NCBI RefSeq assembly: GCF_021028975.2
Contig: NC_059426.1
Span: 146,754,001-146,818,000, forward strand
Direction: 5' to 3'
Length of the DNA: 64,000 nucleotides
From: Sphaerodactylus townsendi
Lineage: Eukaryota
Made by a program: the position numbers and the translations under genes. This document shows positions 5,863-35,275 of the stretch, piece after piece (within the stretch, counting starts at the first letter, position 1; every line of letters starts with the position of its first letter). Under the pieces are notes generated by a model that saw only the letters and a program-made list of their open reading frames with translations, did no database searches and was not told the origin of the DNA.

Positions 5863-6645
5863 CAGGTGTATCAAACATGCAGCCCGGAAGCCAGATCTGG
5901 CCCCATGAGGGGGTTATCGGGCCCACAAGCCAGCTGAGGCGAACCCACTCTTTGATCCTGATCTGCCCTGGCGAGCCCAGTCCAGGCAGCCACCCCAACC
6001 CACCATGGGCTCGCAACTCCAGGCAGCTACCCCAACCTGCTGCAGGCTCACCAGTCCAGGCAGCCACCCCGCCCTGTTGCCAATCTGGCCTGATGAGCTT
6101 GCTGTGGGCTGACCAGTCCAAGCACCCACCCCTCTCTACTCGCAATCTGTCCTAGTGACCCACCACCCAGGGTCGGAGCGAGGGGGAACTACACCCTACG
6201 CCCCTGCCACGCCCCCCACCCCAGAATGCCACACCATGCCCTTGTCATGCCCCAGAACGCCCCCGCTCCTGCGCACGCCTGGTGCATTGCGCACCCCCCC
6301 TTTCCCCTTGACACTACACCACTGCCACCACCCCCATGCCAATCTAGGCTGGCAGTCCTGCTGCAGGCTCACCAGTTGAGGCAGCCACACACCTAGTGGT
6401 GATCTGGGATAGCAAGCCTGTGGTGGGCTCACCAGTCCAGGTAGCTACCAGCTCCCTACCAGTGCCAACTACTTCCTCCACAGCCAATTTGGGCTGGCAA
6501 GTCTGCTGCAGGTTTGCCAGCTAAGGCAGTCATCCCCTCCAACCCTGGTATGGGCTTGACAGCCAAGGCAGCCACCGGGCCCAGCCCGACCAAGTTACTT
6601 TTATGTCACATCTGGCCCTCGTAACAAATGTGCTTGACACCCCTG
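5863..6645. mobile_element. Non-autonomous hAT DNA transposon
   Basis: Terminal inverted repeats CAGGTGTATCAA / TTGACACCCCTG; 8-bp target duplication ATCAAGAG / ATCTAGAG; GC-rich internal degenerate repeats. Confidence 0.8.
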
Positions 6646-8545
6646 ATCTAGAGGAAACCACGGTTTTGAAATAGAAGCACAGGAGAAGAATATGGCCAAC
6701 ACAAATATTGGAAAAAGCCCACACAGTGTGCAGGGACAGAGCCCCTATAAAACAATAGTGTTAGTTCAGCATGCTATTCAGTTGGTGGTAGGAGCAATCT
6801 AAAGGGGGACTTCATCTCCCATGTGATTAAGAATTCTGATTAAAATTTCTTATTTTGTTTTAGAAGTTGAATTCACATTATTCAGGGACAAAGATGCATA
6901 TTTCAGTTATATACCTGCCCTTGACTTTTGCAGGCTGCTTCTTGCCACCCTCAGGTCCAAATCTACCTTGCAACAGATTCATCTTTCTAACCCACTTTCC
7001 ATCCCATTCATGATCTTTCCAAGTTTAACCGGGGGTAGGGGGAAGCAACACCAGTGGAACCTGGGCTTTCTTAGTAGCCTGCATGACAGCAAATAAATGG
7101 CTTATACAAGCATCCTATTAACATCCTATTCCATGGAGAAGACAAACTTAGGGTGATGGGGGAATAGGAGGGATGGAATCTGAGCTGGTGAGGCAGGATG
7201 GAGAGAGAGCGAGAGCAAACTGCAAGGTGGGAGAAACAGAAAATGCACTAGAACTGGCAAATGCCTAAGCAAACCATGATTCAATGACTGCCTGCAAACT
7301 GAATTCTGATTTCACAAACAAACTGCAGGAATGGCTTTATGCTACAACTGAACCAACCCACTAATTCAAAACTATAATGCTACCGCCCAAAAACTTTCTC
7401 CTTACCAAGATGCTTAGTGGTGATTTTTTTTAAAAAAAATCAGAACCAAATAAAACACTCAATAAAAGAGGTGTATGTGATAATATAAACCTTGAAACAA
7501 CTGGTGTTACTCTGTAAGTACCACTTATTTACTTCAAGTGGAATGTTCTCTGCAAGAATGACGCAAATTGTATTGTTGAGGAAGTCCCTACTTTTTCTTT
7601 TTTGGAAAAGAGAGTTAAAGGTCAGGGAACAGATGATTAATTTATGATTGGTTGTTGTGGGGTTTCCAGGCTGTGTGGTCGTGGTCTGGTGGTTTTTCGC
7701 TCCTAATGTTTCGCCCACATCTATGGCTGGCATCTTTAGAGGTATGTCATGGCGAGATGTGTTTCTCTCTGTAATCTATGATTACTGAAGGTTAATTTCC
7801 GATTTATGGGAATCAAATTACTTCTCAAATAACATTAGATGAAAGGCTTGCAAGCAATATTCTCGCAAAAAACAAATTATTACAAGTACTTAAAGGCCTG
7901 TATGCTAGAGTCAAGGGCAGTTAAAAGCCTAAGCAGCTGTAACAAAGCAACAGTGCTTGTGTAAACTGAAAACACGATCCATAGTGTGCAATCAATGGGG
8001 ATTTCATTCAGAGAATTAAAAACAGGAAAATCCCCAAATGCCCCCAAATGCGAACATAAGAATTGGGAGGAAAGATTATATTTTAAACACATTTACATAT
8101 AGCCATGGTCTATACATAAGAACAATGTTGTACTTCTCACATGTGCATGTGCTCAACTCTTGGATACAGATTTCTGGGTTATTCTGCTTGGACAAAGCAA
8201 TGTGGCAAAAGCTGTACTTTTTAATGATATTTGCCACCACACACGGAGAGGATTCTGAAAACTTCTTAAGGAATATACAAATGTTTTTAAGATCACCAGA
8301 AATTTTTTATTTCATTCAAATCATAGCTCCCAACAAGACAGTTTCAGAGGGTAGCAGCGTTGGTCTGGAGAATGTTAGATTTGAGCCAAATAGCACTTTA
8401 GAGACTGTACTGGACCACCCACGCCTCCTATATTTCTTCAGGCAGGAAAACCACTTAATCAGTTTTTTCCCGCATTTTTCCCTTCAGGGACTGAGGAGCT
8501 TCAGAATGATGGTAGCATAAGGTAGAAAGCACTTTCCCTCAGCCC

Positions 8546-10139
8546 TGTAGGCAAAGAATACCCATTGACCTTTATTTTCATTTCCAGGCACTCCCTTCAC
8601 TAAGGCACACTAAAATAAGTATACTGATGCAGAAGTAAACTTAAACAAGAACACAGATTTATTTAACAAAGAAGATGGAAAAGAGAAAAATAATAACTTG
8701 GAGATGGATGGATGAGGCAAATAAGGCAGGAGGAAAGAGAAATATATACATTAATTACACAAGAGCTTGGCACAGAGGTTTAGCGTTTTTGATTTCTTCA
8801 GCACAGTTTTAAAATTATTCGGGCCGTATCTGCAACGTGGCCGCTTACTTCACTGACGGACCTAGAGCGCCAAAAAAGGTGCCCCCAGGCCGCTACCGTT
8901 AGCTGACGAAGCGCCGCTAAGCTGCAACGCGCAGCAAGCTGGGCGACCTTGAGGCTCCTTCCCTCCCAGGGCGGCGTCAAGCCGCCTAAACAACAACCCT
9001 TTAAAGCGGTTGTTGTTGGGGAGGATTAATCTTCCCCTTGGGCGGGCTGATGCGAACTTCAGCGCCGCGGGGCGCTTCCTGCCCCATGCTTTACTGTGTC
9101 TCCCTAAATTAAGCCTGTAGAGGCGTCGCCAGCCCGCCCACACTGTCCTCCGACCTCCAGGGGGTGGAGGCGAAGCGTGGGCCTGCGACGCCCCGAACTC
9201 TTCGGCACTCCTGGCGGCTGCAACCTGAAAATGAAGTGAAAGCGGCTCCCGATGCAGAGCCGCCCTGCCTTCTGCCGGCCTCCCTGTTGCCTGCTCGCAC
9301 GCTTCCGTGCCGAGCGCGTTCCCGAATCCACGCCGGCCAGAAACTCTACGCCCGGCGATTGAGGCGCGAGGTGGCCCGTGGCAAGAAAAGCGAAGCCTCA
9401 GATCTATAGTTCAGCTTAGATGTTGGTTTCATAGTTGTTATGAAATTTGTACAGTTCCTTTCTCTTAGATGGTACTGGCTTATGGTTTCTACACACAGGG
9501 TCCTAATGTAGGCTCAGTACTTATACACAGTACTCTCACTCAGTCCTCCCATTAGAAAAACCCTCAAAATTAAAACAAACTCTCCACTGAGGTAAACTTA
9601 AAGTAAATCCCTATATCCCTGACCCACTGGTACACTGGAATTCTTTTCTATCTGGAAGATATTCCTGTCCTGGTTTATATGACCATTCCACTTGACCCTC
9701 CAGTAAACTTTTCCCCCAGTATACTTGGGCTGTGTATAATTGCTGTCTACCAACACTCAGGCTGATAACTCTTAGCTGCTCTGAGCCCTTCGGGGATAGG
9801 GCGGGGTATAAATACAACTGAAATTAAAAAAAAGAAAAAATAACAGTTCCTGTGACACAATTTGACAAAACTATTCCCTCAGAGATGTTTAGTTTCTACT
9901 CAGTCAAGACAGACAGTTCTTAACAGCAGGAACGTTAAAAACCCAAGGCCTCTCAGATTGTACTGAGAGAGAGTTAACATCCCCCCCCCGCCCGCATCAT
10001 TCAGTTACTTGACCAATCAGAATGCAGAAGGCCACAGCCAATCAGGTGGCTCCCCTGATCCTAGGCTTTCCATGCCACACTCAAAAGGCAAACAAAACCT
10101 TTGCTTAGAACTGTACTTTAAATTACATTTTTTCTTGCA
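8546..10139 (-). mobile_element. Solo LTR carrying an internal GC-rich cassette and a short L2-type 3' tail
   Basis: TG...CA termini with a 4-bp target duplication GCCC (8542-8545 and 10140-10143). Minus-strand AATAAA near 8571 and 8658; CCAAT boxes near 10013-10043. L2-like tail GAGCCCTTCGGGGATAGGGCGGGGTATAAAT plus A-rich run at about 9773-9843. Confidence 0.65.
8820..9400. other. CpG-undepleted, hairpin-dense cassette of unknown class (structured RNA or retroelement 5' region)
   Basis: Abrupt high-GC block within AT-rich DNA with at least 12 adjacent inverted repeats (listed in findings). Confidence 0.6.
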
Positions 10140-11841
10140 GCCCATCATAGAGACCAACAAGATTTTTGAGGTATAAGAGCTTCAGCAATTTGAAGTTCTT
10201 GGTATCCAGCAAAGGGAGCTTTGACTCCCAAAAGCTCATACTCCAAAAACCTTGTTGGTCTCTAAGGTGCAACTGGACTCAAATATAATAGCTCCCTGAA
10301 AGGTGTGCAAATTGGTTCCCAAACTTCTGAGTGCCATGACAGAAAGCTTAATGGATGCTGGGGGGAAAGGAAAAACATTAGAACAAGGTACCAAATGGCA
10401 ACATAACAGCCAGACCTCCACAATACTTCAACAAACTAATCAAACTGTTCCACAGATATGTGGAACTCGCATGCACCACATTTCAAAAAGGAGCAACATG
10501 CATGCATTTCATCACATAGTATATCAGGGTAAGCAGACACGTTGGTTGTACTCTTGTTGCAGAAGTTGTAATTAATTAAACTGATTGAAGACATGAATAT
10601 GCTCATATGGGAAGAGTCACTTCACAGAACACTAAGAAAATGAAAGAAAAAAGTTCCCTGGACACGGGAAAAGTCTAGTCTCTCACACAGAACAACCAAT
10701 GAGTATGTGACAAAATTGGATTGCCCTAAGTACATAAGAAGAGTCTGCTAAATTGGACCAGCATTCCATTTAGTCTAGCACACTGTTTCACACAGTAGCC
10801 AACCAAGGCCAAGGGCCCTGTTGTTACCTCCCAGCACTGGTATTCAGAGGTTTACTCCCACTATATATGGAGGAATCCTCAGTCACTATCTATAGCTAGT
10901 AGCGATTGATGAAACTCTCCTCCATTAATCTGTGCCTAACCCTTTTTTAAAGTCATCAATATTTGCAGCCAATCTCTGCTTTGACAGAAGCAATCATGAA
11001 AGGCCTATGTTGTTTACTTAGAGACAGCACTCCCATGTGTAGACTATATTAGCCCTTTCCTGACACGTACTAGTACATACTACCCTGATCTTTCATCTCT
11101 GTGGCTACCATGCTGCCTGAAAGTAGCTATACAGAGATTTGGCATTCACACACATGCATCTGTAAATACTATACAAAACATTGATTTTCAGCACTTGTTG
11201 GTCTGTGTACTGAAGATGAAAAGTCATAAGTTGCCCCTTTCAGACAACACGATCACCCTGTGGACTGGAAGTTGCTGGCCTCCTGGTACACATGAACTGC
11301 AAAGTCCGAAAATGGCAAATGTGGGAGCTATTCATTGCAGCCTCATCAGGATCACAAGCAATTATTGGTTGCCTCTTAGCTTGAAGAATTAATATTTGAA
11401 ATCACCTCAGTCAGGAGAACTAAAAGGTTAATTAAAGAACTAAGATTTCAAATATACTTAGTAAACTATGTTCTCTGTATGCTGTGTAGCTGTGCAGACA
11501 CGTTATTGGTGCCATACAGATTATGGCGGCAGCAGGCAGGGGAGCTCTGGCAGAGCTCTCTCAGGTGGCCCTGTGCTGCTCAGTGGTAGGGAACTTCTGC
11601 ACAGTTCCCTACCTCAGTTAGAGGGACTATTGTTGGTAAAGATTCATTCCAACACGGGTTTATCATTACACTTATGCAGTATGAAAGTTCTAGTATAGCT
11701 TACAAATATTAAAAGTCAAGAATCCACTGAAATTAATACTGAAACACAGTTGCTACTTTTTAAAAACAAAATTGGTATAAATCTACATTTTACATACACA
11801 AAAAAGACAAATAGGTGTCCATATAGAAAAGTAGAAGAAAA

Positions 11842-34175: not shown

Positions 34176-35275
34176 CAGAGGTATCAAATTCAATTGCACA
34201 GGGGGCCAAAACTCAAAGCACACTTTAGGTTGGGGGCCGAACAGGATAACCATTTATTGCCAGGTATGCAAACCCCCTCTGCCTGGGTTTGAATGCCAGG
34301 TGCAACCGGCTCTTGTGAGCCGGCAGCACTGGGAAGGTTGCCGCCGACGCCCCCTCTCTGCCCAATGAAGCAAGCAGCTGCCTTCTCCATGGGGAAGAGA
34401 GGGTTTGCAAGCCCGGTATTGCCGGCTCATGAGGCGCAAGAGCAGCAGCAGCAGGCACACCACTGCTGCTGTCCCCTCTCTGCCCAATGGAGCAGGTGGC
34501 TCAGCTGCCTTCTCCATGGGGCAGAGAGGGTTTGCATGCCCGGTGTTCCTGGCTCGCGCGGTGCAATAGCAGCAGCAGGCAAGCAAGACCCCTCTCTGCC
34601 CAATGGAGCAGGAAGCTGCCTTCTCCGTGGGGCAGAGAGGGTTTGCAAGCATGGTGTCGCCAGCTTGCGCGGCGCGACAGCAGCAGCACCATGCAGGCTG
34701 CCACCGCCGTCCCCTCTGCTCAACAGAACAGCCGGCTGCCTTCCCCATGTGGCAGAGGGGGTTTGCATACCTGGTGCTGCCGTCCCCGATGCCCAACGGA
34801 GCAGGTGGAACAGCTGCCCTCTCTGTGGGGCAGAGGGTTTGCATGCCTGGCACCGCCGCCCCCTCTGCCCAATGGAGCAGGCAGCAGCAGCACCAGGCAG
34901 GCAAGTCCCCTCTCTGTCCAATGGAGCAGGCAGCTGCCTTCTCTGTGGGGCAGAGAGAGTTTGCAAGCCTGGTGTTGCCAGCTTGTGCGACGCGAGAGTG
35001 GCAGCACCAGGCAGGCCGCCGCCGCCATCCCCTCTGCCCAACAGAGCAGGCGGCTGCCTTCTCCATGGGGCAGAGGGGGTTTGCATGCCTGGTGCTGCCG
35101 GCAGCACCAGGTAGGCCACCACTGCTGTCCCCTCTGCCCAACAGAGCAGGCAGCTGCCTTCTCCATGGGCAGAGGGGGTTTGAATACCTGGCAATAAATG
35201 GTTATCCTGTTCGGCCCCCAACCTAAAGTGTGCTTTGAGTTTTGGCCCCCTGTGCAATTGAATTTGACACCCCTG
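34176..35275. mobile_element. hAT-type element with ~105-bp terminal inverted repeats and an internal GC-rich minisatellite
   Basis: 34176 to ~34283 is the near-exact reverse complement of ~35168-35275. The interior repeats variants of CCCCTCTGCCCAATGGAGCAGGCAGCTGCCTTCTCCATGGGGCAGAGAGGGTTTGCATGCCTGG. Confidence 0.85.

Follow-up and report, generated by a model that had tools for sequence, protein, structure and literature searches.

A likely non-autonomous PIF/Harbinger element with a hairpin-packed interior in an LTR-like repeat of the gecko Sphaerodactylus townsendi

A GC-rich, hairpin-packed insertion in the genome of the gecko Sphaerodactylus townsendi is likely a young non-autonomous PIF/Harbinger MITE of NuwaII type that lies in an LTR-like repeat. 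It was found in a stretch of 64,000 nucleotides on contig NC_059426.1 (positions 146,754,001 to 146,818,000, forward strand), which we call the window and in which coordinates are given. We consider it highly likely that this cassette is a non-coding TIR repeat of ~545 bp, sitting at a TCA of an older LTR-like repeat and moved by a transposase and a Myb/SANT protein. Copies of the cassette are dispersed through the genome with defined ends and target duplications, other copies of the host repeat show the site unoccupied, and the genome also contains Harbinger elements whose termini are related. The copy in the window, non-autonomous and with a nested inverted-repeat interior, occupies 8822-9397 (unstranded), with ends defined by alignment.

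The initial annotation described a CpG-rich run of abutting hairpins with no credible open reading frame and no match to a known RNA class, and these descriptions hold. The GC content of the cassette is 0.635 with 55 CpGs (observed/expected 0.94), compared with 0.42 and an observed/expected ratio of 0.26 for the whole window, in which it is the most CpG-rich 580-nt segment. The stop-free frames have 182, 98 and 97 amino acids and none of the three matches Pfam, while a search of Rfam over 7000-11000 gave 10 weak matches, all far below the gathering score. Both arms of all 13 stems that had been listed are present at their coordinates, although GGGGAGGA/TCTTCCCC, GCTGA/TCAGC and CCGAA/TTCGG belong to the reading of the window copy only and are not paired in this way in a clean copy of the family (L002). 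Folding against dinucleotide shuffles, which had been proposed as a check, gave RNA z-scores of -4.12 on the plus and -4.07 on the minus strand, values equalled by none of the 100 shuffles on either strand, and a z-score of -5.15 for the cassette folded as DNA. The fold is thus far from chance, and the view of the cassette as a recent mobile insertion stands, with its retained CpGs fitting the youth of a family whose copies are up to 98% identical; the other suggestions, that it is a structured RNA, a captured viral module or the 5' leader of a retroelement, found no support.

The host is an LTR-like, putatively solo repeat at 8406-10149 (unstranded), ~1.1 kb long without its two insertions. 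Its first bases are TG and its last ...CATA, and an exact GAGAC duplication lies at 8401-8405 and 10150-10154. Most other host copies end ...CA, and their flanking duplications are mostly unrecognisable. A search of the genome with the host repeat returned 1425 first-look candidates, from which 14 copies were fetched. As the initial annotation had suggested looking for, these include LTR copies that lack the cassette; it is absent from all 14. The empty site in 13 of the 14 is a single TCA at the junction, preceded by C in seven, and the window junction reads TCG-(8822-9397)-TCA. Flank comparison accordingly gives a left target-site duplicate TCG at 8819-8821 (plus strand), with one mismatch to TCA, and a right duplicate TCA at 9398-9400 (plus strand). 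This mismatch (TCG versus TCA) in the window's own duplication counts against our explanation of the locus as a cut-and-paste insertion of a MITE into a TCA site of the older repeat. In all four runs of public contigs, 8803/8806 is joined to 9405, and these joints most likely come from other host copies. In the adjoining segment at 9405-9769, identity to nine other host copies is 81-86%.

The second insertion in the host repeat, at 9770-9838 (plus strand), is short, A-rich and unrelated to the first. It appears as a gap in the alignments of host copies, a contig joint (9769-9845) marks it, and depth there is very high; presumably it is similar to a SINE tail. A GC-box/TATA-like motif sits in it and lies outside the LTR proper, since other host copies do not have this insertion. 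The host repeat in turn interrupts another short repeat (~8330-8405 and 10150-10280), with contig joints from 8367/8372 to 10143-10152, and the nesting at the locus has three levels. Coding exons that resemble coiled-coil sequence lie on the minus strand at ~24.3, 21.0, 19.7 and 1.8-1.9 kb. The cassette lies between those at ~19.7 kb and those at 1.8-1.9 kb, so its site is intronic as had been proposed. We take these exons to be CEP128; searches of Pfam and Atlas for a name of the host gene gave no match. The window also holds two degenerate, GC-rich tandem arrays, at 34340-35170 and 5960-6575, with units of ~120 and ~37-60 nt.

A genome search with the cassette produced 1685 first-look candidates, with 40 of them scored and 29 other loci fetched. 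These 29 dispersed loci match the window only inside 8820-9376, at a BLAST identity of 72-77%, and none of them shares its LTR flanks. A 25-nt core has at least 528 exact matches in the genome, and CTNA followed by the TIR of the wider clan has 2288; the reversed control gave 0 in both cases. In the alignment, the repeat unit begins GGCCGTATCTGCAC and ends GTGCAGAAACGGCC, with TIRs of ~14-18 bp that start with GG. Of 59 loci examined, 52 have a 14-nt TIR pair. At the left end of the window copy, the TIR (GGCCGTATCTGCA..., 8822-8842, plus strand) agrees with that of the family apart from small insertions, and its 18-mer occurs 126 times exactly in the genome (control 0). The right TIR (9370-9397, minus strand) aligns with that of other copies and is degraded by insertions in the window reading. 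Removing seven loci without a TIR pair, one with a poor right end and two duplicates from the 59 left 49 copies, among which an identical 3-bp target duplication is present in 44, a 2-bp duplication in four and a 4-bp duplication in none. In a second set of loci, picked by a pattern that fixes the left flank, 20 of 23 have the 3-bp duplication. Counted over both strands (88 in total), the site composition is C 67, T 56, A/T 80, A 56 and G 67. The middle base is A or T in 40 of the 44 identical duplications, which under strict definitions include 17 of the form TNA, 16 TWA and nine CTNAG. Copies in the family range from 433 to 574 nt, with clean copies at 545 nt and the window copy at 576 nt. 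Like other MITEs, they have TIRs, are short and non-coding, and occur in high copy number with homogeneous length. The TIRs, the 3-bp duplications, the lack of a tail and the unshared flanks together identify the family as a DNA-transposon MITE. They also speak against the cassette being a retroelement leader or a part of the LTR, as does its absence from the host loci. At one place (L014/L020, 745-2015), two MITE copies lie in the same orientation with starts ~750 bp apart.

The clean copy L002 folds far better than the window copy, with RNA z-scores of -33.0 (plus) and -33.1 (minus) and a DNA z-score of -31.5. Some 84% of it is paired. The TIRs close a structure of about ten hairpins, one of which has near-perfect arms of ~77 bp each and extends over positions 238-397. 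The counterpart in the window is the remnant of a long central hairpin at 9075-9245 (unstranded, bounds approximate), in which the outer right arm cannot be read. G-U pairs make up only four of 228 pairs on the plus strand and five of 229 on the minus strand of L002, compared with 14 and 23 on the two strands of the window copy. The left/right asymmetry of G-U pairs reported for the window is therefore not a property of the family, and the stems are simply inverted repeats that favour neither strand. That the functional strand had been left undetermined is explained by the same Watson-Crick stems, which fold equally on both strands. The core of the TIR recurs at seven places in L002 in both orientations. 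The hairpins would be nested inverted repeats at the DNA level, several of them with copies of this core, which may mark protein-binding sites. In Rfam, L002 has 44 matches, all below the gathering score and mostly to generic models of miRNA hairpins and sRNAs.

In a possible, although unlikely, alternative, the branched fold of the Harbinger MITE is itself under selection because the element pairs its ends or amplifies more readily as folded single-stranded or cruciform DNA. In an alignment of 16 rows including the window copy, with the structure taken from L002, 78 of the 228 pairs have changed on both sides, far above the 37.1 ± 4.4 in shuffled controls (0 of 500 as high) and the 33-43 in slid controls, and such pairs occur in 18 of the 22 helices. 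Both the derivation of the structure from L002 and the relatedness of the rows inflate these counts. In pairwise counts, copies of close subfamilies show the same tendency, with seven (L030) and eight (L023) Watson-Crick double changes compared with ~0.5-0.7 expected; the window copy has four compared with 2.0 expected, along with 50 single mismatches. Copies from four distant subfamilies, at 63-75% identity for the three of them measured, still fold with z-scores of -19 to -30 (12 shuffles each). So many helices kept across subfamilies are more than what cut-and-paste is known to need. However, Watson-Crick double changes also arise without selection, by gene conversion or by a template switch from one inverted arm to the other. 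In addition, the 550-nt ends of long Harbinger elements have no interior sequence in common with the MITE and no such fold (z-scores of -2.8 to +1.9, 12 shuffles each). The further proposition that a lizard clan of Harbinger MITEs keeps a ten-hairpin DNA fold by compensatory change, with the folded form as a working part of mobilisation or amplification, is in our estimate improbable. We prefer the reading that arm-to-arm copying explains the double changes without selection, a process that would also keep the inverted arms alike.

The divergence of the window copy from its relatives calls for a separate explanation. We judge it likely that the copy has been misread, its imperfect sequence being the product of long-read base-calling errors on self-complementary hairpin DNA. 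PMC7229812 describes miscalled and skipped bases in nanopore reads of inverted duplications. Against five references, the window copy has an identity of 71-75% and 52-58 indel events (52 against the clean copy), and only six of its 56 aligned CpGs have turned to TG or CA. The segment of the older host repeat differs from nine copies by just 1-8 indels per 365 nt. Within the family, identity runs in a gradient from 98% to 66%, and CpG loss does not correlate with it (rho -0.23, p 0.12, 49 comparisons). It is rather improbable that the window copy is correctly sequenced and truly diverged, as an older copy or a member of a separate subfamily. Several diagnostic letters are common to the window copy and two others (L009 and L013), and some contigs of run X1 lie on 8812-8939. 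Yet L009 and L013 are no nearer to it (74-75%, 56 indels) than L002 is, and the copy, although younger than its host, has ~9 indel events per 100 nt, compared with 0.3-2.2 in the host, and a CpG observed/expected ratio of 0.93. The same garbling recurs in many other copies, one of them running into poly-G. In that copy (L052, from 1568), the MITE becomes a long poly-G tract after 67 nt, which is likely assembly garbage.

In the public contigs, cover is absent at 9324-9387 in all four runs and at 8812-8939 in three of four, with 0 differences in the flank pieces; these gaps fit an assembly error but are not evidence for one, because a contig attests only what is present and the element may be polymorphic at this site. 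The summed depth of public contigs gives no copy number. As a test for miscalls at methylated CpGs, indels and transversions were counted by position: in garbled copies, 657 of 1222 (54%, compared with 45% expected) fall near a CpG, as do 107 of 183 in cleaner copies and 43 of 83 in the window copy alone, the last not significant (p 0.14). Among 50 loci, in a sample biased by the choice of loci, a TAAGC motif, considered as a possible recurrent miscall symmetric between strands, is present in the left arm only in 18, in the right only in four, in both in five and in neither in 23.

That the cassette acts as RNA, be it a mobile structured RNA similar to a retrozyme or SINE, a retroelement leader, an IRES or a viral module, is highly improbable: its predicted RNA fold is very stable and the long perfect hairpin could, if transcribed within the intron, serve as a small-RNA precursor, but the ends largely refute this account (TIRs, fixed 3-bp duplications and tailless full-length copies), the clean copy folds alike on either strand with hardly any G-U pairs, neither it nor the window copy matches Rfam at the gathering score, and the cassette is no part of the LTR.

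Assignment of the MITE to Harbinger leads to the question of which elements could move it. The genome has 152 matches to DDE_Tnp_4. TIRs of the GGGCGTTTTCGCAC type or GGCCTTTTTCGCAC bound four elements of 9.1-9.9 kb and a fifth, longer span, with exact 3-bp duplications in two of these five and in only three of six long elements overall. The long element L119 has open frames for DDE_Tnp_4 (E 1e-31) and Myb_DNA-bind_4 (E 1e-15). The TIRs of the long elements agree with the MITE TIR at 11-12 of 14 positions and at 13 of 14 for a related subfamily. A transposase-coding element with termini identical to those of the MITE was not found in 30 short loci and 32 wide regions (20, 8 and 4, the last being TIR loci without a near partner), and for this reason we can only infer that full-length Harbinger elements would mobilise the MITE in trans through their transposase and Myb/SANT proteins. 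The four TIR loci without a near partner, considered as candidate autonomous elements, turned out to be garbled or truncated MITEs with no tblastn match. Likewise, MITEs beside transposase genes in L100/L116 and L117 were considered as ends of such elements and proved to be complete short elements with both TIRs.

Several Harbinger-type sequences were seen along the way. Two elements of ~9.1-9.2 kb, one at L119 2647-9901 and L127 1-2994 and the other at L110 1-7166 and L126 6934-9901, are 97% alike; both have intact TIRs and 3-bp duplications, features by which they were probably active recently. On the minus strand of L100 (1400-2680), a DDE_Tnp_4 match falls in an open frame of 470 amino acids with no TIR pair within ~5 kb, a possible domesticated gene derived from Harbinger, and a related MITE lies ~700 bp downstream of this frame. 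A second family of long Harbinger-type elements has the TIR GGGTCACTATCCACT and an AAT duplication (L107 ~7215-7233, L108 ~6925-6943).

Taken as it stands, the locus is a routine case of transposon annotation, with a young Harbinger MITE, rich in GC, that lies within an intronic LTR-like repeat. Many copies of the family are probably misread in the assembly, which makes apparent divergence, G-U patterns and ages unreliable. Should the fold prove to be needed for movement, it would offer a testable handle on how MITEs come to outnumber their autonomous parents, and would point to a structure-dependent step outside the textbook cut-and-paste model. Hundreds of near-perfect 77-bp hairpins could also feed small RNAs or genome instability.

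Among known systems, we assign the MITE to the NuwaII type on account of its 3-bp duplication, C-TNA-G context and TIRs starting with GG, that is, by description of target and TIR and not by sequence similarity. In PMC4482050, the NuwaII group is given a C-TNA-G target, a 3-bp duplication and GG-starting TIRs of 13-46 bp (section 8), and its non-coding members include NuwaII-1..3_XTro (Harbinger-2N1A-C_XT; 402-440 bp, Xenopus) and NuwaII_PFor (588 bp, Poecilia; Table S7). Similar to this group in the PHIS superfamily, the gecko MITE has a C/G-flanked 3-bp duplication, 14-18-bp TIRs starting with GG and the same non-coding size class, and elements with DDE_Tnp_4 and Myb_DNA-bind_4 are present in its genome. 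In contrast to NuwaII, its target is looser, with strict CTNAG in just nine of 44, so that the fit is one of preference only. No lizard appears among the NuwaII entries in 30 of the 31 places of Table S7 (supplement 1 of PMC4482050) that were covered.

According to PMC8437027 and PMC2836001, Harbinger transposition needs two proteins, which also mobilise Tourist MITEs, and PMC5172404 gives a predicted fold for Tourist MITEs. Tourist-like MITEs such as mPing and mPIF share with the gecko MITE a short length, high copy number, TIR boundaries, TWA-type duplications and predicted secondary structure, and by analogy the gecko MITE may depend on two proteins in trans as they do. The short variants of Harbinger-Snek, as described in PMC8437027, resemble it as non-autonomous Harbinger derivatives of reptiles that keep termini and target duplications. 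The gecko family, likened to these reptile MITEs by description and not by sequence, may already be catalogued in Repbase or Dfam. Within the literature covered, which left out most subscription papers as well as Repbase and Dfam, we found neither a Harbinger MITE in a gecko nor a comparable multi-hairpin Harbinger MITE in a vertebrate. We also liken the gecko MITE to what we take to be a further reptile case, the crocodilian Chompy, presumably a non-autonomous Harbinger MITE with termini, target duplications and secondary structure. Plant Tourist-like MITEs are usually AT-rich; unlike them, the gecko MITE has a GC content of 72% and pairs 84% of its bases, forming about ten hairpins that include the near-perfect one of ~77 bp.
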